Source: Sphingobacteriales bacterium
GTDB taxonomy: Bacteria; Bacteroidota; Bacteroidia; Chitinophagales; JADIYW01
Reading direction: 5' to 3'
Length of the DNA: 64,000 bases
NCBI GenBank assembly: GCA_947460245.1
Contig: CANHGL010000007.1
Coordinates: 7,739-71,738 of the forward strand
Below are positions 5,150 through 25,298 of the stretch, piece by piece. Every line of letters starts with the position of its first letter. The stretch's first letter is position 1. A program made the translations under genes and the position numbers. Below the pieces are notes generated by a model. The model had not been told where the DNA came from. It worked only from the letters and a program-made list of their open reading frames with translations, and did not search any database.

Positions 5150-5309
5150 TTTTATCAGTTGTATAGGCAAAAATACAAAAACTAACAGATAATAAACCGT
5201 TGTCGGTTTATATCTGCACTTGATTTAAGTCTTTTTTAGAGCCTATATTTACTAACAGTGTAGATACTTTGTGCTTTCTTATTGAGATGAAGAAAGTAAT
5301 TTTACATTC

Positions 5310-5971: not shown

Positions 5972-7510
5972 ATGAATATCTCAAAAATTACTTCTTTACT
6001 GTTGCTGATCGTCTCAGTAGTTCATTTTTCTTTTGGCCAAACTGTATCTGTTAGGGCAGATAGCACTAAGAAAACTATTGTAAAATCGAGTAATATTACT
6101 AAAGATCTCAACGCTTTAGAACGAGAAAATATTGAGTCAATGAATCTAAAGCAGCAGACTCCATCTAATTATAGTCCTAAAAAAGCAGATACAACGAATT
6201 TGGATATTTTTTCTACGTCACCCATAGTTAAAGGTGCTCCTAAGAAGAAGCCTGCAGAGAAAGTTCCGGTAGTCACTACTGTATTGCCAAAGCCAGCGAT
6301 TGTAAATAAGAAAGCAGATAGTTTAACTGTATTACCTAAAGTAGAAATAAAGCAAAAAATTACGGATAGTGTTAAGGTGAATCTTAAACCTTCAGAGCCT
6401 GTAAAAAAACAGGAGAAAGTACTGCCTGTTATATCTAAACCAGAAGTAAAACCTAAGGTTGTGGTTAATCCAAGAGCTACTGATAGTGTTAAAATAGCAC
6501 CTAAATTAGATACACTAAAGAAAGAAACAAAAGTTGCTATTCCGAAGGAAGTGGTAAAAGTAAAAGTTGAGGCCAAGAAGCAGTTATCTGATAGTATAAA
6601 GACTCCAGCCGCGATGATAAAGGATGTGAAAAAAGAGGTTAAGGTTGTTCCTGTTCCGGCAACTCCTGTAAAATCAGTGCAGGATGACTTTTCTACACAG
6701 CCTGTAGTGAAAGGTAAGAAGTCTAACCCGACTGAAGTGGCTCCTGTATCTTCGGATGTGGTGCCAGTAAAGAAGTTCTCAATAGATACTACTAAAAATT
6801 TTAAAGAATTTACATTTGAAACTACTCCCGTAGTTAATAAAAATGCTTCCTATAGTCGAAGAAACGAGCCTTTGCCAAAAACTAAGGAGCAAGTAGAAGA
6901 GGAAATACCAGTAAACCGTAAGCCCAATAATACGAATTTAGAAAAAAGTAATTCCTTTGTAAGTGAAACGTACGCGCAATACAACAAGGAAGCAGATTCT
7001 ATTCGCATGGCTAATAAGAGAGTCTTGGATAGTGTGATGAGATCACTTAAAATAAAAGTGCCTGTTGTTGTAAGTTCTGCAGATTATATTGATATCTATG
7101 TGAGTGGTGGAGGGATGATAGAGAACGATGATTCTAAGTTATACGACCATATTTCTGTATTACATACAGGGGTTATTCAACGCGAGTATAATACAAAAAC
7201 ACAAGGCACTCAGCGAATAGAAAAGAAAATTTCTAAGGATGAGCTTACCAAGCTTGCTCAGTATATAGTTGATTTGGATTTTATGGATATGGAAAGAGAT
7301 TATGATTGTGCAGATACTGATAAAGGTTGTAATGAGCGTTTATCAAAGTCGCCACAGCCAGTTCCATTGGAAATAACAGTAACTGTAGGCGATAAAAAGA
7401 ATAAAGTTAAAGTTTCCTTTTTTGCGCCAAGATTAGAAAAAAACTGGGTGAACTATCCAGTTAATTTAGAAAAGATAATGAGTGCTATTTTTGCGATCGC
7501 AGAGAGGTAG
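5972..7510 (+). CDS. Secreted hypothetical protein with a K/P/V-rich low-complexity region and a C-terminal globular domain
   Basis: The signal peptide reads MNISKITSLLLLIVSVVHFSFGQ. Residues ~70-270 are rich in KP/KV/VK repeats. The segment D(I/D)FST(S/Q)P(I/V)VKG occurs twice. The C-terminal ~200 aa are of normal composition. The gene lies 14 nt downstream of pcm on the same strand. Confidence 0.7.
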   Translation: MNISKITSLLLLIVSVVHFSFGQTVSVRADSTKKTIVKSSNITKDLNALERENIESMNLKQQTPSNYSPKKADTTNLDIFSTSPIVKGAPKKKPAEKVPVVTTVLPKPAIVNKKADSLTVLPKVEIKQKITDSVKVNLKPSEPVKKQEKVLPVISKPEVKPKVVVNPRATDSVKIAPKLDTLKKETKVAIPKEVVKVKVEAKKQLSDSIKTPAAMIKDVKKEVKVVPVPATPVKSVQDDFSTQPVVKGKKSNPTEVAPVSSDVVPVKKFSIDTTKNFKEFTFETTPVVNKNASYSRRNEPLPKTKEQVEEEIPVNRKPNNTNLEKSNSFVSETYAQYNKEADSIRMANKRVLDSVMRSLKIKVPVVVSSADYIDIYVSGGGMIENDDSKLYDHISVLHTGVIQREYNTKTQGTQRIEKKISKDELTKLAQYIVDLDFMDMERDYDCADTDKGCNERLSKSPQPVPLEITVTVGDKKNKVKVSFFAPRLEKNWVNYPVNLEKIMSAIFAIAER

Positions 7511-7517
7511 TTCGTCT

Positions 7518-9182
7518 CTATGCTTTTTTCGTAAAGCTATCTTTTAATGAAACTGTTCTGTTGAATACGAGGTGTTCGTTGTTGCTGTCTTTATCCATGA
7601 AGAAATAACCCTTTCTCAAAAACTGAAAGTGATTTTCTTGTTTTGCTTCCTTAAATGCAGGCTCTGCATATGCTATGGGAATTATGTGTAAGCTCTCCGG
7701 ATTGATATATTCTTTAAAATCTCCTTCCTCGCTATTGGGATTTTCCACTTTGAACAATCGCTCGTATTCTCGTATTTCCACAGGAGTGGCAAAGGGTACA
7801 GATACCCAGTGAAGTGTGCCTTGTACCTTCAAACCAGAGGTGTCATTACCGCTCCTGCTTTCTGGAATGTAATTGCAATGAATTTCTATTACATTGCCTT
7901 CTATATCTTTTACAATATCGTTGCAAGTTATAATAAAAGCACCTTTCAGCCGAACGCTTTGTCCAGGTGCAAGTCTGAAAAATTTCTTTGGAGGATGTTC
8001 CATGAAATCTTCCCGCTCAATATAAATTTCTTTAGTAAAAGGTACTTGTCGTGTGCCTGAGTGTTCATCCTCAGGATTGTTCTCGATAGCTAAATGAATC
8101 AACTCTTCTTCTAAGTTGGTGATGATAACCTTAATAGGATCGAAAACCACCATCCTTCTTAAAGAGATTTTATTTAGTTCTTCACGAACGCAGAATTCTA
8201 ATAAGGAGATATCATTTATTTTTTCTCGTTTTGATATTCCAGCTCTATCACAGAACTCACGGATGGCACTTGGTGTATATCCTCTTCTGCGCATCCCTGA
8301 AATTGTGGGCATTCTTGGGTCATCCCATCCTGAAACATGTCGTTCATTAACGAGTTGCAATAACTTTCGTTTGCTCATCACAGTATAGTTAACATTCAAG
8401 CGGGCGAATTCATATTGATGCGAAGGGTAGATGCCTAATTTTTCTATACACCAATCATATAATGCTCTATGTGGAATAAACTCAAGTGTACAGATAGAGT
8501 GCGTGATATTCTCAATGGAATCACTTTGGCCATGAGCAAAGTCATACATAGGATATATGCACCACTTGTCGCCGGTTCGGTGGTGATGGGCAAATTTAAT
8601 GCGATATAAAAGTGGGTCACGTAGCAACATATTAGATGATGCCATATCAATCTTTGCACGTAGTGTTTTCTGTCCTTCGTTAAATTCTCCGGCTTTCATT
8701 CTTGCAAATAAATCGAGGTTCTCTGCTGTACTTCTATCCCTGTATGGACTATGCTGTCCGGGTTCGGTAGGTGTTCCTTTTTGTGCTGCAATTTCTTCAG
8801 AACTTAGATCGTCCACATAGGCATCACCTTGTTTTATGAGTTGTATGGCATATTCATAGAGCTTGTCGAAATAGTCGCTGGCGTAAAATTCATTTGCCCA
8901 GGTAAACCCTAGCCATTTTATATCTTCTTTTATGCTTTCCACATATTCGGTATCTTCTGTTACCGGATTAGTATCATCAAATCGAAGATTAGTCTTTCCT
9001 CCAAATTTTTGTGCAATTCCAAAATTCAGACATATGGAAGAGGCATGTCCCATGTGTAAGTAACCATTTGGCTCTGGTGGGAAACGAGTGAGAATAGAAG
9101 TGTATTTGCCAGACTTTAAATCGTTGTCAATAATTTCTTCAACAAAATTCAGTGACTTACCTTCTTCTTTGATTTCTTCCAT
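7518..9182 (-). CDS. glnS: Glutamine--tRNA ligase
   Basis: It carries class I aaRS motifs, HMGHA (HIGH) and VMSKR (KMSKS). The N-terminus NFVEEIIDNDL...RFPPEPNGYLH and the C-terminal anticodon-binding beta-barrel region are typical of GlnRS. Length is 554 aa. Confidence 0.92.
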   Translation of the reverse strand: MEEIKEEGKSLNFVEEIIDNDLKSGKYTSILTRFPPEPNGYLHMGHASSICLNFGIAQKFGGKTNLRFDDTNPVTEDTEYVESIKEDIKWLGFTWANEFYASDYFDKLYEYAIQLIKQGDAYVDDLSSEEIAAQKGTPTEPGQHSPYRDRSTAENLDLFARMKAGEFNEGQKTLRAKIDMASSNMLLRDPLLYRIKFAHHHRTGDKWCIYPMYDFAHGQSDSIENITHSICTLEFIPHRALYDWCIEKLGIYPSHQYEFARLNVNYTVMSKRKLLQLVNERHVSGWDDPRMPTISGMRRRGYTPSAIREFCDRAGISKREKINDISLLEFCVREELNKISLRRMVVFDPIKVIITNLEEELIHLAIENNPEDEHSGTRQVPFTKEIYIEREDFMEHPPKKFFRLAPGQSVRLKGAFIITCNDIVKDIEGNVIEIHCNYIPESRSGNDTSGLKVQGTLHWVSVPFATPVEIREYERLFKVENPNSEEGDFKEYINPESLHIIPIAYAEPAFKEAKQENHFQFLRKGYFFMDKDSNNEHLVFNRTVSLKDSFTKKA

Positions 9183-9224
9183 ATTATATACTTAAATGAT
9201 AAAGCTTAAAATAATATTAAGTCT

Positions 9225-10736
9225 TTAAAGTTGACTAAAACAATTTTCAATCCTTCTTGCTGATGTTTCTCTGCCAAGTAGCAAAATAAGTTCGGGTATA
9301 GTAGGTCCGGATAACTCACCTACCAATGCGGCACGTATAAATTTCATCAGGTCACCTGTTTTTAATGAGTTGGCCACCGCAAAATCTTTCAGTTTATTTT
9401 CTATTGCAATGGTATCGTTTTCAGAACCATTAATTAGGGCCTGAATCAAGTCATCTAAAGGTAATCCATCTTTTATACTTCTTACTTTTGATAATACTGT
9501 TTCGTCGTATATTTCAGGAGATTTAAATAAGTATCCGTAATTATTGCTTAAGTCACTGAGGAAAACCAATCTTTCCTTTACGAGTCCGCATACATTTGAT
9601 AGATAATCAGTCGCTATATGCCCGAATTTTTTTTCTATATCTGCTTTAACTAAATCAGCTAATTTGTTATTGCTTAATTTCTTGATGTATTCTGCATTAA
9701 ACCATTTTGCCTTTTCGAAATCAAATTTAGCTCCTGCCTTATGGATCTGTTCAAGGCTAAATAAATTGATTAATTCTTCCTTAGAGAAGATTTCTTGCGT
9801 GCCTCCTGGATTCCATCCTAAAAAGACCAGCATATTAAGTACTGCTTCAGGTAAGTATCCTTTTTCTCTATACCCGCTACTGATTTCATGTGTTTTAGGG
9901 TCGGTCCATTCTAATGGGAATACTGGAAATCCCAGTCTGTCTCCATCGCGTTTGCTAAGTTTTCCATTCCCATCTGGTTTTAGTAGTAGTGGTAGATGTG
10001 CAAATTTAGGCATCACTTGTTCCCATCCAAGATATCTGTACAGTAATACGTGTAATGGTGCACTAGGCAGCCATTCCTCTCCACGAATAACATGAGAAAT
10101 CTGCATTATATAATCGTCGCACACATTTGCTAAGTGATATGTAGGCATACCATCGCTCTTGAGTAATACTTTGTCGTCCATCTGCACAGTATTTACAACT
10201 ACTATTCCTCTGATTTCATCGTGAAATCGGACATCTTCATTTTCCGGTAGTTTGATACGGATTACATAATGCTCTTTTTTATTCAGCCGATCTTCTACCT
10301 CTTGTTCGCTTAGGGTTAGCGAGTTTTTCATTTGCAATCGCGTTGCGGCATCGTATTTAGCATTCTGATTTACTGCCTTGAGTTGCTCTAGTTCTTCTTC
10401 GGTATCAAAAGCATAGTAAGCAAAACCACTTTTAATAAGTTGCTCTGCATATTGTCTATAACTGTCTTTTCTGTCGCTTTGTCTATATGGTGCGTAAGGA
10501 CCATCTCCAAAAGCAACACCTTCATTTGGACGAATATCCATCCACTTAAGCGCTTCAATGATATATTGTTCTGCACCAGGAACTAATCTGTTTTGATCCG
10601 TATCTTCTATACGTAAGATAAAATCGCCATTATGTTTTTTGGCGTATAAATAATTATATAATGCTGTACGAACTCCCCCAATGTGAAGGGGGCCGGTCGG
10701 ACTTGGTGCAAAGCGAACACGAACTCTTCTGGTCAT
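9225..10736 (-). CDS. gltX: Glutamate--tRNA ligase
   Basis: The protein has RVRFAPSPTGPLHIGGVRTALYNYL (HIGH region) and KLSKRDG (KMSKS). The track start at 10778 is TTG, and the ATG at 10736 (MTRRVRVRF) fits the usual N-terminus. Confidence 0.92.
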   Translation of the reverse strand: MTRRVRVRFAPSPTGPLHIGGVRTALYNYLYAKKHNGDFILRIEDTDQNRLVPGAEQYIIEALKWMDIRPNEGVAFGDGPYAPYRQSDRKDSYRQYAEQLIKSGFAYYAFDTEEELEQLKAVNQNAKYDAATRLQMKNSLTLSEQEVEDRLNKKEHYVIRIKLPENEDVRFHDEIRGIVVVNTVQMDDKVLLKSDGMPTYHLANVCDDYIMQISHVIRGEEWLPSAPLHVLLYRYLGWEQVMPKFAHLPLLLKPDGNGKLSKRDGDRLGFPVFPLEWTDPKTHEISSGYREKGYLPEAVLNMLVFLGWNPGGTQEIFSKEELINLFSLEQIHKAGAKFDFEKAKWFNAEYIKKLSNNKLADLVKADIEKKFGHIATDYLSNVCGLVKERLVFLSDLSNNYGYLFKSPEIYDETVLSKVRSIKDGLPLDDLIQALINGSENDTIAIENKLKDFAVANSLKTGDLMKFIRAALVGELSGPTIPELILLLGRETSARRIENCFSQL

Positions 10737-10884
10737 TCGGTAAAGGTAATAAGTAAATAGTAATTTATAAAAGCCCAAGTTTATGATATGATGATATTTT
10801 AAGCTATAGTTTCTTGAGTTTTAAACTAAAAGTAGCTGTCATGATACGCAAATAGTAATACTTCTTCTTACTTTTAAGTCAGGT

Positions 10885-11493
10885 ATGTATTTTGTTCGAA
10901 TTCCAAAGATTTTGCAAAGGTTGTTTTCATCTGTTATCTGGTGTTTGCCAAATGTGAAAAAGGAATTGTACCTCACCTTCGATGACGGTCCGCATCCGGA
11001 AATTACCCCATGGGTTTTAGAGCAGCTAAAAAAACATAAGGCTAAGGCTACCTTCTTTTGTTTGGGTGAAAATGTAAAACGATATCCGGAATTACTGCAG
11101 CGAATTATAAACGAAGGACATTCGGTTGGTAATCACTCATATGCTCATTTGGATGGTTGGAAAACGAAAGATGAGGATTTTCTTAAAGATGTATATAAGG
11201 CACACAATATTATAGCTTCTCCATTATTTCGCCCTCCTTATGGTAAGTTAACAAGCATGCAGATAGCTCGTCTTCAAACTCAGTTTACTATCATTAATTG
11301 GTCTCTTATGCCGGGAGATTTTGATGCTTCTATTTCTAGTGAACAATGTTTCAGAAATCTCCTGAAAGCTAAGTCCGGGGATATAGTTTGTTTGCATGAT
11401 AATGAGCAATCGGAACAGCATCTTAAATGGATTCTTCCTAAATTTTTAGATCAGTACTCTTCCTTTGTATTTCAAAAAATTCAGTTGGATTGA
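10885..11493 (+). CDS. Polysaccharide deacetylase (NodB-type) family protein
   Basis: It has LTFDDGPHPEITP (the NodB DD motif), ATFFCLGENV, and the HSYAH histidine motif. Confidence 0.85.
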   Translation: MYFVRIPKILQRLFSSVIWCLPNVKKELYLTFDDGPHPEITPWVLEQLKKHKAKATFFCLGENVKRYPELLQRIINEGHSVGNHSYAHLDGWKTKDEDFLKDVYKAHNIIASPLFRPPYGKLTSMQIARLQTQFTIINWSLMPGDFDASISSEQCFRNLLKAKSGDIVCLHDNEQSEQHLKWILPKFLDQYSSFVFQKIQLD

Positions 11494-13906: not shown

Positions 13907-14254
13907 TCATTGCTTGTATTGATAGGCTCCAATAAAGGAAACTATTGAAAATATAAAGTAAGCTATAAAAAAGAATAAAAATGCAATAGTTGTGGGTTCT
14001 TTAACCATCAATAGATAGATAATTACCAATAGGGCTGAAAGGCAGAATTTAATGGTAATGGCAGCAATATTAGATCCCAGCATTTTTTTAGACCCGGATT
14101 TATTATACCTGCGGATAATTAGGTAATGTATAATAGATATCGATGCCATGCCTAAGCTCATCCATCTATAAGCAAAAACAAGGTGTTGGTCAATAAAGAA
14201 ACTGCTAAGTATGAATAACAGGGCGATAATGATTATCAAAACTGGCCATTTCAT
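13907..14254 (-). CDS. Small integral membrane protein (about 4 TM), function unknown
   Basis: This 115-aa protein is almost entirely hydrophobic helices. Its ATG start lies 1 nt downstream of the preceding gene's stop, so it is the last gene of the M23-bactofilin operon. Confidence 0.6.
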   Translation of the reverse strand: MKWPVLIIIIALLFILSSFFIDQHLVFAYRWMSLGMASISIIHYLIIRRYNKSGSKKMLGSNIAAITIKFCLSALLVIIYLLMVKEPTTIAFLFFFIAYFIFSIVSFIGAYQYKQ

Positions 14255-14255
14255 T

Positions 14256-14480
14256 TTAGCGCATTTGTTTCATAATTCTATAAAAGCTGATGAAAAAGCC
14301 AGCGCACAATAATAAAATTACAAGAAATGGAGTAGTGTGAAATTTCTTATCAAGGAAATATCCTAAAGCCGTGAAAATACCTATGAAAGCAAACATCTCG
14401 AAGGCCATGCCAGTGTATGCGAGCCAGCTCTTGTTGCTTTTATCCGGCTGTTTGCGCTGCACTTGTTTGGGACTGTCCAT
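14256..14480 (-). CDS. AtpZ/AtpI-like small membrane protein
   Basis: The protein is 74 aa. A basic N-terminus is followed by WLAYTGMAFEMFAFIGIFTALGYFLDKKF and a second TM segment, which is the layout of AtpZ-type proteins. Its ATG at 14480 overlaps the bactofilin 3' end by 41 nt. Confidence 0.55.
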   Translation of the reverse strand: MDSPKQVQRKQPDKSNKSWLAYTGMAFEMFAFIGIFTALGYFLDKKFHTTPFLVILLLCAGFFISFYRIMKQMR

Positions 14481-14874
14481 TGCCGGCAGTGTTTTGAGTG
14501 GATTGGTGAAGTGGTTTTGTTACAGTAGATGAGTTTACCAATGATCCACTGATATTTGCCCCTTCTTCCACAATCAGTTTTTTATACCTTACCTCACCTT
14601 CAAATGCTGCAGTAGATCTAAAAAACAGAATGCCATTAACATCTAAATTCCCTTTTATTTTTCCCTCTATAGTGAGGTCATTACACTTGATGTGTCCTGT
14701 AATTTGTGCCTGAGGTCCAATAACTACCTTGGAAGAGCTGCTGATATTGCCTAATACCTTTCCATCTAAACGAATATCTGTCTGTGCAGATATATCACCT
14801 GTGATAGTGGTTCCTTCATTTATTTTATTAGCGACCATAGTTTCTATATTGCTTTTCTGAATCTTTGTAAACAT
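14440..14874 (-). CDS. Bactofilin family polymer-forming cytoskeletal protein
   Basis: A repetitive beta-helix pattern is present: TTITGDISAQTDIRLDGKVLGNISSSSKVVIGPQAQITGHIKCNDLTIEGKIKGNLDV. The C-terminal tail is S/T/Q-rich. The track start at 14880 is TTG, and the ATG at 14874 (MFTKIQ) is more likely. Confidence 0.85.
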   Translation of the reverse strand: MFTKIQKSNIETMVANKINEGTTITGDISAQTDIRLDGKVLGNISSSSKVVIGPQAQITGHIKCNDLTIEGKIKGNLDVNGILFFRSTAAFEGEVRYKKLIVEEGANISGSLVNSSTVTKPLHQSTQNTAGNGQSQTSAAQTAG

Positions 14875-14880
14875 ATGCAA

Positions 14881-15744
14881 TTATTTTAAAAATTTAGAGG
14901 GATCAAAGGATTGACCTTTGTACCAAATTTCAAGGCTACAGGAATAACCTTTTGTGGAATTACTCTTTCCAGCGTTGGCTATAACTTCACCGCGACTTAC
15001 GAAGGTACCTATTTTCTTTAATATTTTACTGTTATTTTTTAATATGTATACTAGTTGATTTTCAGACTGTACAGCAATAAAATACTGATCTGTAGTGGTA
15101 TATCCTGTTAGTATAACATGCCCAGGGAGTACCGCCTTTACCGCCTCTTCGGGATCAGCAGAGAGTTCAATATTCCTTGTATTTTGACTGAATTTAGTAA
15201 GGATACCACCAGAAACTGGAGCATACAACGCTAAGTCTTTTAAGCCATTTGTGCGTGCATCCTGAACTGATTTTAATAATTCTATATTTTGTAGCCCTTT
15301 CTCCATATTCCCAATGAACTTGGATTCATCGTTTGATTTTAGGCTAAGAACGCTCGTGTCTACATTTACTTTATTGATTTTACCGGTAACGGCATCCACA
15401 ACAACCTTGCTATTTAGGATATTTTGAAGATTTGTAAGGTATTTCTGTTGTGCTAGCATTTTTTCTTCCAAGTCTTCTGACTTCATACTGATTTTTAGTA
15501 TTTCCTTACGACCATAAGAGGATCCATACCCCGGAACATATTGTTTTAGCGGTGTGAATGAAATCAGTGCAAAATTTAAGAAGGTGAAAAAAAGAATTAC
15601 CAACCCACTGATGATAATAACATTCAGCCTATTGAGTTCTATTACCATCTTCACGGCATAGCTCTTCTCATCAATAATCTGAAAACGGTAGGTGTCTTTT
15701 AACTTTTCTCGCCATTTGTTCCAGCGCTGTCTGTTTATTGCCAT
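14881..15744 (-). CDS. Membrane-anchored M23/LytM-fold protein with degenerate active site
   Basis: It has an N-terminal TM segment (VIIISGLVILFFTFLNFALISF). The C-terminal LytM fold shows PVSGGILTKF...GEVIANAGKS...DPSKFL, but the canonical HxxxD and HxH positions read NIELS and CSLEIW. Confidence 0.75.
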   Translation of the reverse strand: MAINRQRWNKWREKLKDTYRFQIIDEKSYAVKMVIELNRLNVIIISGLVILFFTFLNFALISFTPLKQYVPGYGSSYGRKEILKISMKSEDLEEKMLAQQKYLTNLQNILNSKVVVDAVTGKINKVNVDTSVLSLKSNDESKFIGNMEKGLQNIELLKSVQDARTNGLKDLALYAPVSGGILTKFSQNTRNIELSADPEEAVKAVLPGHVILTGYTTTDQYFIAVQSENQLVYILKNNSKILKKIGTFVSRGEVIANAGKSNSTKGYSCSLEIWYKGQSFDPSKFLK

Positions 15745-15828
15745 GTGAGATGATGATTAAGCAAATTTCACTGAAATAAGTAAAATAAATTTAGGAAATT
15801 GCGTTAAAATTAGGGAATTATAACGAGC

Positions 15829-18800
15829 ATGCGTCTATCTACGGCTAAAAAACTGCTACTCTTGACTTTATCTCTTGTCTTTTTTTTGGTAGACAGTTCA
15901 GCTGAAAACAAAAAGAAGAAGGCGTCTGAGTATCAAAAACCTAACATTATCAAGATGGCATGGGGTGATCTCACTACCCGAAATAATTACTATTTCAATG
16001 CCAGTGAGTTATTTAAGGAGATTGTCCATAATTATGAGTTTCAGCGTCAGTTAGATTACAATGAACTTCTGCCTTTCTATTTTCATGACGGTGCAGATTT
16101 TTCTGGTAATACCACTGAATTAGAAACCATAGCCCGCAAAACCGGTATAGTCTTGCAGTTGCATGATTATAGTCGCTGGAGGGATAATGCATTTTTATTG
16201 TTAGGTAAGTCGCAGTTTCTCAGGAAGCAATATGATACTTCTCTAATTACTTTCCAGTACATCGTAACAACGATGAAGCCTGGAAAGATGAATATGAAAG
16301 TTGAATTTAGTAATAAAGACCGCCTGAAATATATTCGTAAGCGACAAAAAGAGTTGGCAAAAAAAGCTGGGGAGAAGAAGAAATTTATTGAAATTAAATT
16401 TAAGAAGGATCAGGAAGAGGCCCAGCAAAAGGCAGAAACAGCCCGTGAAAAGCAATTAGCTGCCATCAAGCAAAAGCAAAAACAATTAGAAGAAATAATT
16501 AAGGCAAAAAAGAAAATCATTGCTTTACAAAAGAAAGGAAAGAAGATTCCTCCTGAACTTTTAGCCAAGGCGAAAGCCAAGACCACCAAAGTTGATTCTG
16601 CAACTATACAGCAAGTTCAGCCTATCAAGAAAACACAAAAGCCTAATTACGCCACCAATCTGCCTTATATTCTGTTGGGGGATCAGTATGTTAAAAATCC
16701 ATACTATAAAGATTCCACTGGTGACAGAGCTAACCAAAGACCATTGGATAGTTTATCAAAGAAAGCAGAAGAAAAATTTGATAAACTTAGTTTTTGGGAA
16801 AAAATCAAACACAAACCATCTCGGCCTGAAGCAATTGTATGGATGGCTAAATCCCTTATAGAACTTGAAAACTATGCGGATGCAAAAAGTATGATTTCTT
16901 ACGGTAAGGCATTGCGTAAATTAACCAAAAAGCAACGTCGTGAGTTTTATCTTATAGATGCATATTATCATATCCGAAGAGAGGATTATTCTCCCGCTAT
17001 TGAGGAGATCGAAAATGCTTTACTTTATTTCAAGAAGAAAAAAGACAAAGCCTATTATGAATACATCTTAGCCCAGTTGTATTCAAAAAATAATCAGCCT
17101 GCGGACGCTGTAGATTATTTTGTTAAGGCGGGTAAGCACACTAAAACAGAGGAAATGACTCTTTTCTCTCAAATGCAGTTGGCTAATTTATACAGTAAAA
17201 ATCCTGATCTGGCAGATCAGGATGTGGTGAATATGTTATCTAAATTGATTCGATTTGGAAAGAACAGGGAGCATGCAGACGAGGTGTTCTATACCATGGC
17301 TAATTATTTTTATTTTCAGAAAGATACTACCAATGCAGTGGTCTTCTTGCAAAAGTCGGTTAATAAATCTATAGCTAATCCAAACCAAAAAGGAAAGTCC
17401 TTTCTGCGTTTAGGAGAGATTGCTTATGATAGAGAAGACTATGTAGTAGCTGCAGGTTTTTACGATAGTGCTATAGCTTATTTGCCTGTTGGATATGAAA
17501 ACTATGATCAGATTCAAAGCAGAAAGAAGACATTGAGTGAACTGGCTATTTATGTTCAGGTAATCAAAGAGCAAGATAGTCTTCAGCGTTTGGGAAAGTT
17601 AAGTCCCAAAGAATTGGATAAGTTTCTTTCTGATGTAAAATCAAAACAGGAAAAAGAGGAGCGAAAGAAATCGAGGTTTACATCAGAAGGAGGAGCGAAT
17701 ACAATACAGCAGACAGGTTTAGTATCTGCGAATGTTATTTCTAATGGCTTATGGTATTTTTACAACCTAGAAACAAAGAGTAAGGGGTTTAATGAGTTTG
17801 TAAGTATTTGGGGAGATAGAAAGCTGGAAGCTAATTGGAGAAGAAGTAATAAGAGTGGATTTACAGACGATTTTAATGCTCCTGCAATTAATACTATTGA
17901 TACCTCTTCCATCCCAGCTTCTAAAGGTATTAAGAGATTAGTGCCATTAAAAACTGCTACTGATAGTTTATCGATTCCGAAGACACCCGAGGCATTTATG
18001 GCGTCTGATAAGAAGATTGCAAATGCTCTTTTTGGTATCGGTGAAATCTTTAAAAATAAGTTGGGTAACCTTTCCAAAGCAAAGCAGGCATTTGATGATT
18101 TGATACGAAGGTATCCAAACAGTGAATTTGATGTCAAGGCTCATTACTATGAGTATCTTATTTATTTGGATTTAAACTTGGTAGGATTAGCCCAGAAAGA
18201 AAAACAATATATACTTGAAAATTATCCCATTTCAGAAGTTGCAGAGGTGTTAAATAAAAACGGAGTTAAGGATCCTTCAACAGCCTCATCTACCAGGGCG
18301 CAAATCCTTTATGATTCAACGTATCAATTATTTTTGTCAGGAAATTGTGATCAGGTAATTATCAATAAGAAGTTTGCCAAAATGAAATATCCTGCTGCTG
18401 CCGAACTTGCTAACTTTGAATTTTTAGAGGCTGTCTGTTATGGTAAAAACAAGCAATTTGATTTATATAAGAAAGCGTTGTCTGAGATTATAACAAAATA
18501 TCCATCAGGTGCCATTAGGCAGAAGGCGCTGGATTACTTATCCGCATATCTTGATTTTCAAGGAAAGCCTTCGGATACTCTGGCACAAAAGGTCTCCATT
18601 CCCAAAGATACAGTGACGATTATTAGAGATAGTCTGGCGGATGAGTTTATAGTAGATACTACTAATTTGTGGGTGTTAGTACAATTGAAAGATAAATACA
18701 TTCGTGTATCAGATGTTGTAGAACAGGTTAAAGTATTTAACCAAAAGAATTTTAGTGATTTGAAGTTGAAAATAAATCCTGTTTTTTTTGAAGGCTATGC

Positions 18801-19008
18801 AGTGCTTACAATCAAAAGATTTGAAGGTATTACGGATGCCCGAGAGTATTATGTAAAAATCAGAAATGTGTCTTCCAGTTTAGCGGGGGAGAATAATAGT
18901 AAGAATATTGCTTATTATATTCTGGCTCCATCCAACTTTAGAAAGATAAAGAAGCTTGATGATTTTGGTGCTTACACTAAATTTTTTGAACAAAATTATC
19001 CTAAATAA
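15829..19008 (+). CDS. Secreted 1059-aa TPR-repeat protein with a K/E-rich coiled-coil segment
   Basis: The signal peptide MRLSTAKKLLLLTLSLVFFLVDSSA has no lipobox Cys. Residues ~160-262 are a lysine/glutamate-rich heptad-like stretch. There are several TPR-like helical-pair blocks, for example YGKALRKL...YYHIRREDYSPAIEEIENAL...AQLYSKNNQPADAVDYFVKA. The stop TAA is directly followed by the PBP1a ATG. It may belong to the SprE/PorW-type TPR family, but I cannot verify that. Confidence 0.7.
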   Translation: MRLSTAKKLLLLTLSLVFFLVDSSAENKKKKASEYQKPNIIKMAWGDLTTRNNYYFNASELFKEIVHNYEFQRQLDYNELLPFYFHDGADFSGNTTELETIARKTGIVLQLHDYSRWRDNAFLLLGKSQFLRKQYDTSLITFQYIVTTMKPGKMNMKVEFSNKDRLKYIRKRQKELAKKAGEKKKFIEIKFKKDQEEAQQKAETAREKQLAAIKQKQKQLEEIIKAKKKIIALQKKGKKIPPELLAKAKAKTTKVDSATIQQVQPIKKTQKPNYATNLPYILLGDQYVKNPYYKDSTGDRANQRPLDSLSKKAEEKFDKLSFWEKIKHKPSRPEAIVWMAKSLIELENYADAKSMISYGKALRKLTKKQRREFYLIDAYYHIRREDYSPAIEEIENALLYFKKKKDKAYYEYILAQLYSKNNQPADAVDYFVKAGKHTKTEEMTLFSQMQLANLYSKNPDLADQDVVNMLSKLIRFGKNREHADEVFYTMANYFYFQKDTTNAVVFLQKSVNKSIANPNQKGKSFLRLGEIAYDREDYVVAAGFYDSAIAYLPVGYENYDQIQSRKKTLSELAIYVQVIKEQDSLQRLGKLSPKELDKFLSDVKSKQEKEERKKSRFTSEGGANTIQQTGLVSANVISNGLWYFYNLETKSKGFNEFVSIWGDRKLEANWRRSNKSGFTDDFNAPAINTIDTSSIPASKGIKRLVPLKTATDSLSIPKTPEAFMASDKKIANALFGIGEIFKNKLGNLSKAKQAFDDLIRRYPNSEFDVKAHYYEYLIYLDLNLVGLAQKEKQYILENYPISEVAEVLNKNGVKDPSTASSTRAQILYDSTYQLFLSGNCDQVIINKKFAKMKYPAAAELANFEFLEAVCYGKNKQFDLYKKALSEIITKYPSGAIRQKALDYLSAYLDFQGKPSDTLAQKVSIPKDTVTIIRDSLADEFIVDTTNLWVLVQLKDKYIRVSDVVEQVKVFNQKNFSDLKLKINPVFFEGYAVLTIKRFEGITDAREYYVKIRNVSSSLAGENNSKNIAYYILAPSNFRKIKKLDDFGAYTKFFEQNYPK

Positions 19009-21252
19009 ATGCGTAGAATGAAAGCGTGGTTATTGCAACCCAAGAACTTATGGAAGCTATTTGGCTTTGCTGTCTTGTCGGTTGTTATATTCTTTATGTT
19101 GGTGCGGGTGGGCTTATTCGGTCGTCTCCCAAGTTTTGATGAGCTCGAGAATCCAACGGCAAATCTTTCTTCTGAGATCTATTCGTCGGATTCTGTTTTG
19201 ATTGGTAAATATTATGTAGATAACCGAAGTAATGTATCGTACGAGGAATTGTCTCCATATTTGGTAAAGGCATTGGTAGCTAATGAAGATGAACGTTTTT
19301 ACGATCACTCCGGCATTGATCTTAAGCGTACTATAGCGGCTATATTCATGGCAGGTAGAACTGGTGGAGGGAGTACGGTAACGCAGCAACTAGCCAAAAA
19401 TATGTTTCATCATCAGGCGAGTAATATTATTCAACGTGTTTTTCAAAAGGCTAAAGAGTATATTATAGCTGTAATGTTGGAGAGGAGGTATACCAAAGAG
19501 GAAATTATTGCAATGTATTTCAATACTTTTGATTTTGTAAATAACGCAGTAGGAATTGAAAGTGCATCAAGGGTGTACTTTAATAAAAAACCCAACGAGT
19601 TGAGTGTTGAAGAGGCTGCTATGTTTGTAGGAATGTTACAAAATCCTTCTTATTATAATCCCAGAAGATTTGAGAAAAGGACCAGAGAGCGCAGGGCTAC
19701 TGTTTTAAGAAAATTGATGGAAACCGATGCTATTTCAGAAGCTCAGTTCCAATCTCTGAAAGAAAAACCCATACAACTTGATTTCCATCCAGAATCTGCT
19801 AATGATGGTTTGGCACCCTATTTTAGAATGATAGTTGCTGAAGAGTTAAAAAAATGGGCCAAAGAAAACAAAAAACCAGATGGAGAGCCCTATAATATTT
19901 ACACAGACGGACTCAAGATCTATACTACTTTGGATTCCCGTATGCAGAAATATGCAGAAGAGGCAGCATTGCAACACCTTACCTATTACCAGTCGTTGTT
20001 TAACGCACAATTCAAGGCTGGTTGGAATCCTTGGGAAACCGACAAGGGTAAGGCAATAATATTAAGTGCAATAAAGTATACAGATCGTTGGCACTCCCTT
20101 AAAGATCAAGGCTTAAGCAAGGAGGATATTTTAGAGAATTTCAAAACGAAGAAAGAGAAGATGCGTGTCTTTACCTATCGTGGTTTAAAAGATACTACTA
20201 TGACGGCTTGGGATTCAGTTAAGTACTATAGATCATTTTTGCAGATTGGTATGATGGCAGTGGAGCCATATACGGGCTATGTTCGTGCATGGGTTGGTGG
20301 TCCTAAATTTGAATATTTTAAGTACGATCACTGTAATGTAAATACAAAACGACAAGTAGGATCTACTTTTAAACCGGTGCAATATGCCCTCGCAGTAGAT
20401 AATGGATGGTCGCCATGTATGAGTATTCCAACCGGTCCAATTACGGTTACTTATCAAGGCACAGTCTGGGAACCTAAAAATTCCGGTAGATACAGTGGAA
20501 ATTATCCTATGAAGTTTTGTCTTGCACGTTCTATCAACAGAGCGGCTGCTTATATGATGAAGAATTTTGGACCGGAAGCTCTGGTAGACTTATCCCACAA
20601 AATGGGAATAACTACAAATATTCCTACTGTCCCTTCTATTTGTTTGGGAGCAGGTGAAATTTCATTATATGAAATGATGACTGTTTATAGTACCTTTTGC
20701 AATGCAGGGATTAGCACTAAACCTCAATATCTATTAAGGATTGAAGATAAAGACGGAAATATTATCCAAAATTTTACTACGGAAATGAAAGAAGTATTTA
20801 GTGATAATACGGCTTATAAAATGTGTGAATTACTGAAAGGGCCTGTGTCATCTGGAGGTACTGCAGCTAGATTACGTTCCTATTTTACCTTCCCAACAGA
20901 TGTAGGTGGTAAAACGGGTACAACGAATAAGAATACAGATGCATGGTTTATCGGATTTACACCTCAATTACTCGCAGGTGTTTGGGTTGGATGTGATGAC
21001 CCATTACTTCGTTTTCTTTCTACTGATATTGGTCAAGGAGGGCATGCAGCAATGCCAGCCTGGGGGATGTTTATGCAGAAGGTATACAATGATCCCAAGT
21101 TAGCGCTTAATAAGGATGCCAAATTCTTTAGCCCATCTGATTCATCATTGCTTAAAAATGTTTGTAATGAGGGGGAAGAGATACTTATCAGTGGTGATGA
21201 TACCGGACAAGCTGATGAAGAGGTTCCTGATTCCGAATATGGTAAGAAATAG
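19009..21252 (+). CDS. mrcA: Penicillin-binding protein 1A (bifunctional glycosyltransferase/transpeptidase)
   Basis: GT51 motifs are EDERFYDHSGID and GGSTVTQQLAKN. Transpeptidase motifs are STFKP (SxxK) and KTGTT (KTG). An N-terminal TM anchor is present. Confidence 0.92.
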   Translation: MRRMKAWLLQPKNLWKLFGFAVLSVVIFFMLVRVGLFGRLPSFDELENPTANLSSEIYSSDSVLIGKYYVDNRSNVSYEELSPYLVKALVANEDERFYDHSGIDLKRTIAAIFMAGRTGGGSTVTQQLAKNMFHHQASNIIQRVFQKAKEYIIAVMLERRYTKEEIIAMYFNTFDFVNNAVGIESASRVYFNKKPNELSVEEAAMFVGMLQNPSYYNPRRFEKRTRERRATVLRKLMETDAISEAQFQSLKEKPIQLDFHPESANDGLAPYFRMIVAEELKKWAKENKKPDGEPYNIYTDGLKIYTTLDSRMQKYAEEAALQHLTYYQSLFNAQFKAGWNPWETDKGKAIILSAIKYTDRWHSLKDQGLSKEDILENFKTKKEKMRVFTYRGLKDTTMTAWDSVKYYRSFLQIGMMAVEPYTGYVRAWVGGPKFEYFKYDHCNVNTKRQVGSTFKPVQYALAVDNGWSPCMSIPTGPITVTYQGTVWEPKNSGRYSGNYPMKFCLARSINRAAAYMMKNFGPEALVDLSHKMGITTNIPTVPSICLGAGEISLYEMMTVYSTFCNAGISTKPQYLLRIEDKDGNIIQNFTTEMKEVFSDNTAYKMCELLKGPVSSGGTAARLRSYFTFPTDVGGKTGTTNKNTDAWFIGFTPQLLAGVWVGCDDPLLRFLSTDIGQGGHAAMPAWGMFMQKVYNDPKLALNKDAKFFSPSDSSLLKNVCNEGEEILISGDDTGQADEEVPDSEYGKK

Positions 21253-21394
21253 TCTGGGATCATCCATTTCAATTCTATAGATTTAATTAATCGCTCATTT
21301 TTTACATGATTTAATAAGCATGTCACAAAATCTATCTATTAGCTGTATCTATAGTAGAGATTAACCCCCATCTTTACATTAGCAACTGAGGATA

Positions 21395-21473
21395 GAAACA
21401 TAGAAACCCAAAGAAACAGAAACCTTAGTAACCTAATCCGAAAGAAACAAAAAAACCTAGGAAACATTGAAAC
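21395..21473 (+). repeat. Phased array of GAAAC-type pentamers (7 exact, 2 variant copies)
   Basis: GAAAC occurs at 21395, 21403, 21413, 21419, 21444, 21461 and 21469. Variants are GTAAC at 21428 and AAAAC at 21452. Spacing is mostly 8-10 nt. AACCCCC is present at both 21363 and 21471. Confidence 0.85.
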
Positions 21474-21481
21474 CCCCTAAA

Positions 21482-21508
21482 AGAGCAACATCACGTTGCT
21501 CTTTTTTA
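21482..21508. terminator. Intrinsic terminator: strong on the + strand, and also placed to terminate the minus-strand SPOR gene
   Basis: The hairpin is AGAGCAAC (21482-21489), loop atcac, GTTGCTCT (21495-21502), followed by T6 on the + strand. On the minus strand the hairpin is followed by TTTT and lies 20 nt past the SPOR gene stop. Confidence 0.75.
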
Positions 21509-21522
21509 TTATTAGAAGTTTA

Positions 21523-21966
21523 TTAATAGTTTTTCTGTTTTGGCTTTTTGTCGTCACCAGGAGAGGAGGCCTTCTCTTCAATGACAAAACTTGCAGGAAA
21601 GTAAGGCTTAACCTGCTGCATAAATTTATAAGCCTCTTGTTGGGTCTCAAATTCTCCAGCCCTCAATTTGAAATTTGGAGGCACATAAGTAACAAAAGTA
21701 GCTATGCCTGGAAATCGTGCAGAAAATTGTGCTTTGGCTTCGAATATCCTTTCTCTGGAAGGAGCCTGAAATACCTGTACCCTTATCAGTCCTTTCTTCT
21801 TGCCATCTGCTTTTCTTAGATATATCTTTTGAAGTATGTCAACCCTGGGGTCTTTAAAGAAGATAATATTATTACTTACTTGAACAGTGTCGCTACTGTT
21901 TGCACTTACTGCTATAATGGAAGTAACTAAAATCCAGGATGTAATTATTTTTTTTAGTTTACCCAT
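21523..21966 (-). CDS. SPOR domain-containing protein
   Basis: The C-terminal region reads RVQVFQAPSRERIFEAKAQFSARFPGIATFVTYVPPNFKLRAGEFETQQEAYKFMQQV, which matches the SPOR (RNP-like, PG-binding) pattern. The plausible start is MGKLKKIITSWILV (21966). The longer track ORF would overlap the secA 3' end. Confidence 0.7.
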   Translation of the reverse strand: MGKLKKIITSWILVTSIIAVSANSSDTVQVSNNIIFFKDPRVDILQKIYLRKADGKKKGLIRVQVFQAPSRERIFEAKAQFSARFPGIATFVTYVPPNFKLRAGEFETQQEAYKFMQQVKPYFPASFVIEEKASSPGDDKKPKQKNY

Positions 21967-21983
21967 TTTAATGTTTGGATTAT

Positions 21984-24900
21984 CTAGACCGTCTCTTTTC
22001 CGTGACAGTGTTTGTATTTCTTTCCACTTCCGCAAGGACATACATCATTTCTTCCAATCTTCACCTCTGCTCGAACCGGTTGTGGCTTCTCTCCAGGTGT
22101 TGTTCCTGCGCCTGCATATTCATCTTCTATTGTGCCATCACCTCTGGATTCTTTCGTTTTTTCTACCACTCTTCTCGGTTGTCTGTGCTGTTGTATCTGA
22201 GTAGCATCCTGAACGGGCAGGCTGCCCTTCATTAGAAAAGTTGTTACATCTTTATTGATGGCGCTCAGCATCTGCTTAAATAATTCAAAGGCTTCGAACT
22301 TAAAGATTAATAAAGGATCTTTTTGTTCGTGCACTGCCATCTGAACAGAATGCTTTAAGTCATCCATCTGTCGCAAATGATCTTTCCAGTGATGATCTAT
22401 GAAAGATAAAATGATATTCTGTTCAAATACTTTTATCAGTTCTCTCCCCTTGCTATTGTAGGATTTTTCAAGGTTAGCAATGATGTTCACACTTCTGTTG
22501 CCATCTGAAAAAGGGATAACAATATTTTGGAACTGACTTCCACGTTCCTGGTATACATTCTTTACAATAGGATAGGCTTCCTTTATAATGCCTTCAGATT
22601 TACGACTGTATTTCTCATAAACTTCTTTGTAAAGATGTTCAGTCAGCTCTTCTGTTTTCTTAATTTTTAATTCTTCAGCGGTAAGTGAAGTATCTACGGA
22701 TAAGAAGCGGAAGCAGTCCAATTTAAATGCTTCAAAATCCTGAGCTACTTTCCCGTCTGCTGCGATTTCATAACTCAGGTCGTAAAACATATTAATAAGG
22801 TCGAATGTGATACGTTCTCCCACTAGGGCATGCTGTCTTCTTTTGTAGATGACTTCCCTTTGTGCATTCATCACATCATCGTATTCTAAAAGTCGTTTAC
22901 GCGTTCCGAAGTGATTTTCTTCCACTTTTTTCTGAGCGCGCTCTATGGATTTTGTTACCATAGCATGCTGGATAACCTCTCCTTCTTTATAGCCCATCCT
23001 GTCCATCAGTCCAGCAATCCTGTCTGACCCAAATAGGCGCATTAAATCATCTTCTAAAGATGAATAGAACTGGGTGGATCCGGTATCGCCCTGTCTTCCC
23101 GCACGTCCACGCAACTGTCTGTCCACTCTGCGCGAGTCATGGCGTTCAGTTCCTATAATAGCCAATCCGCCTGCATCTTTCACGCCGGGTCCGAGTTTGA
23201 TATCTGTACCTCGACCTGCCATATTCGTAGCAATAGTTACCTGTCCCGCTAGTCCCGCTTGCGCTACAATCTCTGCTTCCCGTTGGTGTTGTTTGGCATT
23301 TAGAACATTGTGAGGGATTTTACGCATATTGAGCATCTTACTCAATAATTCAGATACTTCTACATTAGTAGTTCCCACGAGTACGGGTCTTCCTTCTGCT
23401 CTGTACTGTTCGATTTCTTCAATAATAGCATTGTATTTTTCGCGCTTAGTCTTGTAAATAAGATCTTCCCTGTCTATACGTTTTGTTTTTTTGTTAGTTG
23501 GTACCACGACCGTATCAAGTTTGTAAATTTCCCAGAACTCAGATGCTTCAGTTTCTGCAGTACCCGTCATGCCGCAAAGCTTGTGGTACATGCGGAAGAA
23601 GTTTTGCAAGGTGATGGTAGCAAAAGTCTGAGTCGCAGCCTCTACTGTTACATTCTCTTTAGATTCAATAGCCTGGTGAAGTCCATCGCTATATCGGCGG
23701 CCTTCCATGATACGTCCTGTTTGCTCATCTACAATTTTAACCTTGCCATCCATTACCACATATTCGATATCCTTGTCAAATAGACAGTATGCTTTTAATA
23801 ACTGGTTAACGGTATGTAAACGCTCCGACTTAACATTAAAATCCTGTAAGATTTCGTCTTTCTTTGTTAGTTTCTCCTGGTGCGAAAGGGCTTCTTGTTC
23901 TACTTCTGCAAGCAATGCTCCAACATCCGGCATTAAGAAGAAATCTTTTTCTTCTCCTGAGGAGGTAATTAGCTCTATTCCTTTTTCTGTAAGATCAATT
24001 TGATTGCTTTTTTCATCTATAACAAAAAATAATTCTGCATCACATAAAGGCATTTCCTTTTGTTGATCTTGCAGATAGTAGTTTTCTGTTTTATTTAAAA
24101 TTTGTTTATTCCCTGTCTCGCTTAAAAATTTTATTAATGCAGTATTTTTTGGCAATCCACGATGTGCCCGTAATAATGCCAACCCGCCTTCGCCTTCTTT
24201 GTGTCCTGTCTTGCCTTCCGATATTAATTTCTTTGCATCCAGCAGGAACTGACTAATCGCTTTTTTTTGAGTGGCTACTAAGCGTTCAATTCTTGGTTTT
24301 AATTCATGGAACATCTGTTCCTCTCCTTTAGGAACTGGACCGGAAATTATTAATGGGGTTCTTGCATCGTCAATCAAGACAGAGTCCACCTCATCTACCA
24401 TGGCAAAGTGGAGTTTGCGCTGCACCTGCTCCTCCGGGGATCTTACCATATTATCGCGCAAATGGTCGAACCCAAATTCATTATTGGTACCATAGGTGAT
24501 ATCGGCTAAGTAGGCATTCTTTCTGTCGTCTGTATGTGGTTCATGCCTATCTATGCAATCGACACGTAGCCCAAGAAAATTAAACAACATTCCGTTCCAT
24601 TCAGAGTCACGTCTAGCCAGATAGTCGTTTACAGTAACGATATGAACTCCACAACCCGCCAATGCGTTCAGATATGCCGGTAAAGTAGACACCAATGTTT
24701 TACCTTCACCTGTTGCCATTTCTGATATCTTTCCTCGGTGTAACACAATACCACCGATGAGCTGAACATCATAATGCACCATGTTCCAGGTGATTTCGCC
24801 ACCTGCAGCTGTCCATTTGTTGGGATAGATAGCTTCATCGCCACTAATTTTTATGTTAGAATTTTTTACAGCTAGTTCTTTATCTAACGTAGTAGCTTTT

Positions 24901-25298
24901 ACAGCAATAAATTCATTCTCGGAAAATCTACGTGCTGCTTCTTTTACCACAGCAAAGGCTTCAGGGAGTATAGTCTCTAAAATTTCTTCAATGGCTTCGT
25001 CGCGTTCCTTTCTTAATTTATCTACCTGGCTAAAAATACCTTCTTTTTCTTCAAGCTCTAACTCTTCAGTTTCAGCCTTAAGTGTGAGTTCAATAATTTG
25101 TTGATCTATTTCAGATAAATACTCTTGTATTCTGTATTTGAAATCCTGTGTCTTTTGTCTTAGCTCATCATGCGACAAATTTTGGTAGGTCAGAAAATGT
25201 TCATTTATCTGTTCTACAATTGGAGCTACCGACTTTACGTCACGATTTGATTTACTTCCGAATAATTGTGAAAGACCTTTCTGTATGAAATTTAACAT
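21984..25298 (-). CDS. secA: Preprotein translocase ATPase SecA
   Basis: It has the MATGEGKT Walker A and [19 protein letters not shown] (DEAD-like) motifs, plus [10 protein letters not shown]. The C-terminal zinc-binding tail reads [14 protein letters not shown]. Length is 1104 aa. Confidence 0.97.

Follow-up and report, generated by a model that had tools for sequence, protein, structure and literature searches.

A gene pair at positions 15829 to 21252 of a 64,000-nucleotide stretch of DNA from a Sphingobacteriales bacterium (assembly GCA_947460245.1, contig CANHGL010000007.1, positions 7,739 to 71,738 of the forward strand; the whole stretch is hereafter called the window) encodes a protein of 1059 residues with tetratricopeptide repeats (TPR), followed by a class A penicillin-binding protein (PBP) of the PBP1a type. 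The first gene is, with high probability, a type IX secretion system (T9SS) subunit, PorW/SprE, in a non-lipidated, insert-bearing form, which shares an operon with the class A PBP, the latter being tied to a neighbouring bactofilin/M23 peptidase module rather than activated by PorW. A preliminary description of this DNA had proposed the TPR protein as an LpoA-like cognate activator of the PBP1a and had named the SprE/PorW family as the alternative; the profile, structure-database and Foldseek comparisons reported below favour that alternative.

PorW/SprE, known from Flavobacterium johnsoniae and Porphyromonas gingivalis, is a periplasmic TPR scaffold whose N-terminal region docks, together with a SkpA trimer, on the SprA/Sov translocon of the outer membrane. 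It has a part in type IX secretion and gliding, is needed for the release of carrier-bound substrates and has been reported as a bridge to the PorK/N ring. The gene pair, the parts of the first protein and the sequences bounding the operon are as follows.

15829..19008 (+): porW/sprE orthologue, 1059 residues, TPR scaffold of the T9SS extended translocon, non-lipidated variant (NF052312, 8gl8_I, Foldseek)
15829..15903 (+): signal peptide, residues 1-25, of the signal-peptidase-I type, cleavage at SSA and then ENKKKK (translation, alignment with lipobox-bearing homologues)
16276..16803 (+): lysine-rich clade-specific insert, residues 150-325, 24% lysine, net charge +26 (composition; not in the canonical PorW alignment)
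17503..18060 (+): Finger Region equivalent, residues 559-744 (AlphaFold2 model; aligns to SprE ~445-550)
18667..18996 (+): C-terminal ferredoxin-like alpha/beta domain, residues 947-1056 (AlphaFold2 on the domain alone, predicted local confidence pLDDT 94.6, predicted template-modelling score 0.88)
19009..21252 (+): class A PBP of the PBP1a type, 747 residues, bitopic with a cytoplasmic tail of 16 residues, start abutting the porW stop
15745..15828 (no strand): divergent intergenic region of 84 nucleotides (nt) between the operon on the minus strand and porW, the presumed site of both promoters
21479..21505 (+): terminator-like hairpin (stem of 11 bp, T run behind it), 3' of the PBP1a gene and before a convergent SPOR gene

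Judged by its sequence, the TPR protein is unambiguously an orthologue of PorW/SprE. The NCBIfam equivalog NF052312 (T9SS_PorW_SprE) matches it in two stretches with 452.2 bits (cutoff 250), of which the best spans residues 325-900 and, in the model, positions 133-713 out of 716, while the other NCBIfam matches are generic TPR models that fall far below their cutoffs (hemY, 35 bits vs 142; ybgF, 27 vs 90). The sole match of a phmmer search of the PDB is F. johnsoniae SprE (8GL8 chain I, E=8.8e-30), in which residues 336-902 align with SprE 159-745. An AlphaFold2 model of the whole protein was built on 52 homologues (mean pLDDT 79), and in a Foldseek comparison of this model with the PDB the same chain was the top match (8gl8_I, E=1e-19, template-modelling (TM) score by target 0.68), better by ten orders of magnitude than the runners-up, which are generic TPR proteins (E>=3.9e-9, TM <0.2).

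The residues that characterise the family are also retained. In alignments of 18-52 homologues, N53 of the N-terminal motif R.Y.D.T.RNNYYFN is invariant, Y55, N57 and P82 reach 90% conservation or more, and the Finger motif columns Y645, N646, G653, F657 and W670 are invariant. SprE of F. johnsoniae is in contact with SprA through N-terminal parts and binds PorD by its Finger Region (PMC10994853), and we infer by analogy that the conserved N-terminal and Finger residues of the window protein make the corresponding contacts. Its T9SS role would likewise follow from orthology.

The gene content indicates that the organism uses a T9SS. An esterase gene at 37599-38756 (+), similar to polyhydroxybutyrate depolymerases, encodes a product with the C-terminal sorting domain Por_Secre_tail (42 bits), in agreement with the T9SS cargo mentioned in the preliminary description, and two members of the window clade (L081, L082) have, in addition to uvrC, gldN and gldM about 4.4 kb downstream of porW. 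Core T9SS genes were not seen within the 64-kb window. An ORF (open reading frame) of 391 residues at 36305-37480, next to the esterase gene, has no family match.

The fold predicted for the window protein is that of a PorW scaffold with additions. Pfam recognises TPR at residues ~327-439 and 732-766, and the AlphaFold2 model shows N-terminal repeats, a TPR superhelix at 331-551 and a second TPR block at 720-912, which bears out the two or more repeat blocks expected earlier. The Finger Region is modelled as two long helices (559-619) followed by disordered loops and contains the most conserved motif of the family, WYFYN..G..EF..WGDRKLEANWRR, at residues 642-672 (nt 17752-17844). The C-terminal domain, in which F998, N1036 and Y1049 are conserved family-wide, gave only generic ferredoxin-like matches in the PDB, none of which reached E<=0.001, and SPOR was not among them. 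Its counterpart in F. johnsoniae SprE is reportedly disordered in the cryo-electron microscopy map and dispensable.

The N-terminus of the window protein reads MRLSTAKKLLLLTLSLVFFLVDSSA, followed by the cleavage site and ENKKKK, and the cleavable-looking signal peptide without a lipobox cysteine is as first described. Cysteines occur only at positions 840 and 870; since the first of them is at 840, there is no lipobox and the protein cannot be a lipoprotein. In the alignment, the canonical lipobox cysteine is replaced, and the corresponding position reads A|E-N-KKKK. The canonical cysteine is missing throughout the window clade (P0001-P0073, L081-L085), represented by ~70 cluster representatives with near-full-length N-termini and lengths of ~1030-1090 residues each, and an AXA-type site with KKKK stands in its place. 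The pattern ..[SGA]-C-[ST]-x-KKN is kept in every other lineage that could be read, including three loci in which porW is linked to PBP1a (L007, L033, L062) and the sister Saprospiraceae. Gorasia et al. described the lipobox cysteine as common to every PorW family member (PMC8754138); as the window protein lacks it, the protein is filed as a non-lipidated variant orthologue and not as a canonical lipoprotein PorW. A cysteine at position 15 (..LLLGC..), present in many clade members, was considered as a cryptic lipobox and rejected: the window protein and several others lack it, and it lies within the hydrophobic core ahead of the AXA-type site and is not aligned with the canonical cysteine.

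The second departure from the canonical protein is the basic insert. A K/E-rich coiled coil of ~100 residues had been described in this region; the charged segment is present, but lysine and glutamate are not balanced (28% K and 10% E in residues 160-262), and the AlphaFold2 model has, with moderate confidence, a single long helix at residues 162-235 (74 residues, nt 16312-16533). PorW proteins of two Saprospiraceae loci (L008, ~6200-7300; L010, ~4100-5200) carry at the same site an extreme poly-lysine low-complexity insert, KKRKKGKKKKKSKKQKKKEAKEKKKK, and they have kept the lipobox and have no PBP1a gene downstream. As insert and lipobox occur together in these proteins, the insert is probably older than the loss of the anchor. 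It may be speculated that the KKKK N-terminus and the basic insert replace the lost acyl anchor electrostatically, thereby making its loss tolerable.

The downstream gene has the N-terminal transmembrane anchor and the glycosyltransferase-51 and transpeptidase domains of a class A PBP (Pfam Transgly, 184 bits; Transpeptidase, 79.9 bits). It scores 469.6 bits with TIGR02074, slightly below the cutoff of 508.75, and its closest PDB entries are the PBP1a proteins of Acinetobacter baumannii and Pseudomonas aeruginosa. Both genes start with ATG in the ORF map, and the TAA stop of porW (19006-19008) is followed immediately by the PBP1a start at 19009, so that the abutting junction noted at the outset is confirmed at 0 nt. 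Taken by itself, such a junction would be unremarkable, since compact genomes have many, and it is the recurrence of the pair in further loci that lifts it above chance. The pair occurs in the window and 10 further loci, in which PorW is ~27-69% identical to the window protein, and eight of the 11 loci have gaps between -1 and +5 nt, the remaining three having 48-214 nt by the recorded gene calls. Co-transcription of the two genes, already suspected from the junction, is well supported by these sequence features, namely the short gaps kept across a deep lineage, the lack of any terminator-like site on the coding strand between porW and PBP1a and the hairpin 3' of PBP1a; translational coupling is possible. 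Transcription would thus run from the shared divergent region through porW and PBP1a and stop at the hairpin.

The conservation of the pair was examined in a scan with one genome per GTDB species, using a pattern derived from the conserved motif of 6 sequences. The best 80 of 596 PorW relatives, from diverse Bacteroidota, were used, and homologues of the neighbouring genes were located by tblastn and ORF clustering, which left 72 loci evaluable downstream and 65 upstream of porW. A class A PBP gene lies downstream of porW within 1.5 kb in only 6 of the 72 loci (L001, L002, L007, L033, L062, L052); conservation of the PBP1a adjacency across Bacteroidota, proposed earlier as a check on the activator role, was thus not found. 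A bactofilin gene directly follows porW in 44 of the 72 loci, with gaps of 26-52 nt in several, and a gene for a bitopic M23 peptidase lies divergently upstream in 33 of the 65. The labels of the loci with these neighbours include Flavobacteriales, Sphingobacteriaceae, Lentimicrobiaceae, Draconibacterium and Chitinophagales, among others, and in Bacteroidales-type loci porW stands in an unrelated context (c11, c12, tsaE). In one of the six PBP-bearing loci (L052, 2093-7670), porW is followed by bactofilin and then by the class A PBP gene, and no other locus has a PBP gene directly behind bactofilin.

In a neighbour-joining tree of PorW, the PBP1a-linked loci all fall on one basal, Chitinophagales-related side, together with two Saprospiraceae loci without the PBP. 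Five more distant relatives within the clade (L081-L085; PorW 49-30% identical) have the same block in every case, with genes for an AtpI-like protein, ATPase_gene1, bactofilin and M23 on the minus strand and porW, PBP1a and uvrC on the plus strand. The pairing of porW with PBP1a is therefore a conserved trait of one lineage and not of PorW generally. It is also found with PorW proteins that have a lipobox and lack the insert (L033, and L062 in its aligned part), which means that lipobox loss and insert do not track the PBP1a linkage.

The order recurring across the phylum has the bitopic M23 gene divergent from porW, which is followed by bactofilin, the small ATPase_gene1/AtpI-like genes and atpB/F/H/A (L005, L011, L012, L014, L016, L020, L021, L025 and ~35 others, with porW at ~7001 in each). 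In many Bacteroidota the bactofilin gene thus heads the ATP synthase operon, and in the lineage of the window a bactofilin-AtpZ-AtpI unit stands apart from the atp genes, behind M23.

The window genes flanking the pair are listed below.

14881..15744 (-): bitopic degenerate M23 (dLytM) protein, 287 residues, of LmdC-like architecture (Pfam Peptidase_M23, 44.9 bits)
14440..14880 (-): bactofilin, 146 residues, start abutting the M23 stop codon (Pfam Bactofilin, 93.7 bits)
14256..14480 (-): AtpZ-like small membrane protein, 74 residues (assigned by position; ATPase_gene1, PF09527, is found there in L081-L085)
13907..14254 (-): multi-pass membrane protein, 115 residues, AtpI-like by position and by one relative (tblastn match in L001)
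21523..21966 (-): SPOR-domain protein, convergent with PBP1a (Pfam SPOR, 22.1 bits, marginal against the cutoff of 21)

Both the dLytM-bactofilin operon on one side of the pair and, with its marginal score, the SPOR gene on the other had been recognised earlier and are supported by Pfam. The dLytM protein has a cytoplasmic tail of 41 residues, a transmembrane segment from about residue 42, a periplasmic linker and an M23 domain in which the HxxxD and HxH zinc ligands are both lost. Both motifs are also missing in L001, L002, L081, L083, L084 and L085, so that, with the window, seven of the eight loci from the non-lipidated clade have a degenerate domain, whereas it is intact in 30-33 of the 37 porW-linked M23 genes overall. 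The cytoplasmic tail contains a conserved motif, YRFQI(I/V)(D/E)E.(S/T)Y.VK, which may be a bactofilin-binding site. The bactofilin ORF as listed begins with TTG, and an ATG one codon further in (residue 3) may be the real start; its 3' end is overlapped by the AtpZ-like ORF by 41 nt. The AtpI-like protein occupies the position of the cluster 2 gene found after bactofilin in L007, L033 and L062, has no Pfam match and falls outside cluster 2 in the ORF clustering.

Beyond these genes, a polysaccharide/peptidoglycan N-acetylglucosamine deacetylase-family gene at 10885-11493 (+), ~3.4 kb from the M23/bactofilin operon, adds to the envelope character of the region, and glutaminyl- and glutamyl-tRNA synthetase genes are adjacent to each other at 7518-10778 (-). 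After PBP1a (21253-25298) the window has the hairpin, the SPOR gene and secA, where L081-L085 have uvrC, which places a rearrangement breakpoint directly after the porW-PBP1a pair.

These gene orders suggest a history in which the order M23, divergent from porW and bactofilin, would be the older and phylum-wide one, the operon with PBP1a being a lineage-specific addition. In the lineage of the window, the bactofilin/AtpZ/AtpI unit would have moved behind M23, and PBP1a would have taken the slot after porW. The pairing would then most likely reflect co-regulation of envelope-growth genes, PBP1a belonging in function with the bactofilin/M23 morphogenetic module and porW being a long-standing resident of the cluster. 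In other phyla, bactofilin and the M23 peptidase LmdC work together (LmdC-BacA), and BacA of Caulobacter localises the bifunctional PBP PbpC (PMC10945521). On these precedents and on the gene order of L052, the bactofilin/M23 module is likely to be a closer partner of PBP1a than PorW is. The cell-wall neighbourhood that had been read as a pointer to a partnership of the TPR protein with the PBP is thus real in its genes, and what it points to is bactofilin and M23.

Four observations weigh against this interpretation. The loss of the lipobox in the window clade could signal an altered role of PorW. The combination of insert and lipobox in Saprospiraceae PorW speaks against an anchoring role of the insert. 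The porW-PBP1a pairing persists down to ~27% PorW identity, mostly with near-zero gaps, which is beyond simple drift and makes a direct functional link possible. Finally, the Bacteroidota-type promoter motif TAnnTTTG does not occur in the 84-nt divergent region, so that promoters can only be presumed there; nor does it occur on the coding strand upstream of porW or within the 3' end of porW, and a sigma-70 scan performed no better than shuffled sequences (29 found vs 32.8 expected).

Among the other explanations, the one that survives best, while still unlikely, is historical accident, in which both the porW-PBP1a pair and the M23-porW-bactofilin order are frozen synteny without regulatory or functional meaning. 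The unrelated context of Bacteroidales-type porW shows that the T9SS needs no such linkage, and there is no evident functional reason for bactofilin to head the atp operon, as it does in many loci. Against this, the order is kept across several named orders and families with, in several loci, the short porW-bactofilin gaps given above, and the porW-PBP1a junctions remain near zero at ~27% PorW identity. The preliminary description had held that the adjacency would be coincidental if the protein were PorW; the retention of the pair through a deep lineage, with gaps mostly of no more than 5 nt, goes against this.

It is improbable, and supported by none of the tests, that the TPR protein serves, instead of or besides its T9SS role, to regulate or activate the adjacent PBP as a dedicated periplasmic factor in the manner of LpoA or CpoB. 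The abutting stop and start codons would suit such a role, as would the occurrence of the pair in 11 loci across a deep lineage (gap <=5 nt in eight) and the surroundings rich in peptidoglycan genes (dLytM, bactofilin, SPOR, polysaccharide deacetylase), and the lost outer-membrane anchor and the long basic helix could let the clade protein reach the PBP. However, orthology with PorW/SprE is clear and the T9SS-specific motifs are kept, 66 of the 72 evaluable loci show no porW-PBP1a link, L033 and L062 have the link without the variant features, and in L052 the PBP gene stands behind bactofilin and not behind porW. Identity with LpoA was rejected on the grounds that no LpoA/LppC family is among the Pfam and NCBIfam matches at E<=0.01, that a lipobox is lacking and that the C-terminal domain is small and ferredoxin-like; identity with CpoB/YbgF was rejected on the score of TIGR02795, 26.9 bits against a cutoff of 90.1.

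A further proposal, for which the odds are similarly long, is that PorW couples, physically or by regulation, the placement of T9SS translocons to local peptidoglycan growth, new translocons being inserted where bactofilin, M23 and PBP1a remodel the wall and the basic helix of the anchor-less PorW contacting the wall or the PBP directly. This would account for the place that porW has kept between M23 and bactofilin in much of the phylum and for its operon with a class A PBP in the Chitinophagales-related lineage. Least probable is a neo-functionalised paralogue that works with dLytM, bactofilin and PBP1a in a wall-morphogenesis complex while another gene supplies the PorW function, an idea with which the loss of a lipobox reported as universal, the degenerate M23 in 7 of 8 clade loci and the large insert would agree, but which has against it an equivalog score nearly twice the cutoff, the conserved SprA-contacting-type N-terminus and PorD-binding-type Finger motif (PMC10994853), gldM and gldN nearby in L081 and L082, the place of the clade beside Saprospiraceae in the PorW tree, as vertical descent predicts, and the failure to see a second PorW in any locus, in a search confined to the loci.

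With the gene assigned to PorW/SprE, it should be annotated as porW/sprE and not as a new PBP regulator. A PorW clade without a lipid anchor implies that tethering to the outer membrane by acylation is not obligatory, which corrects a generalisation on the family; the basic N-terminus and the insert hint at another means of tethering that can be put to the test. The widespread location of porW beside bactofilin and an LmdC-like M23 gene, and beside a class A PBP in one lineage, was not found described in the literature searched, which also yielded nothing linking bactofilin with the T9SS and nothing bringing together LpoA, class A PBPs and Bacteroidetes. This neighbourhood prompts one to ask by what means cell-wall growth and a large trans-envelope machine are kept in step, and offers an approach to testing it; the cluster is a candidate for a bactofilin-dLytM-PBP1a morphogenetic module of Bacteroidota.

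Comparison with known systems places these features in context. LpoA, which activates PBP1A in Escherichia coli, is an outer-membrane lipoprotein with an N-terminal TPR-like domain and a C-terminal LppC-type domain that stimulates its cognate class A PBP; its gene is not known to be next to mrcA. The window protein resembles it in being periplasmic, in its TPR-like helical repeats and in the location of its gene beside that of a PBP1a-type synthase, but differs in having no detected sequence relationship with it and no LppC or periplasmic-binding-like C-terminal domain, and in not being a lipoprotein. CpoB/YbgF is a TPR modulator of PBP1B-LpoB linked to Tol-Pal, and a TPR_6-type stretch at residues 746-819 of the window protein resembles the YbgF repeats, a likeness that is generic to TPR.

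The operon on the minus strand, with a bitopic M23 gene whose product has a cytoplasmic tail and then a bactofilin gene, is like that of LmdC-BacA in Hyphomonas neptunium and Rhodospirillum rubrum, and the presence of a bifunctional PBP gene in the cluster recalls BacA-PbpC of Caulobacter crescentus. LmdC is an active DD-endopeptidase, whereas the M23 protein of the window is without zinc ligands, and in most Bacteroidota, unlike the LmdC module, the M23 gene is separated from bactofilin by porW.

The closest likeness is to SprE (8GL8 chain I) and PorW of P. gingivalis (PGN_1877), with which the window protein shares homology over the whole TPR scaffold, the N-terminal motif, an interrupted-repeat Finger Region with WYFYN...WG.R.LE.NWR and the C-terminal alpha/beta domain, in an organism or clade with T9SS cargo and gldMN. 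It differs from them in having a signal-peptidase-I site and KKKK in place of the lipobox and C-S-T-KKN, in the extra lysine-rich insert of 176 residues between the N-terminal repeats with its predicted 74-residue helix, and in having its gene in a probable operon with that of a class A PBP, next to a catalytically dead M23.

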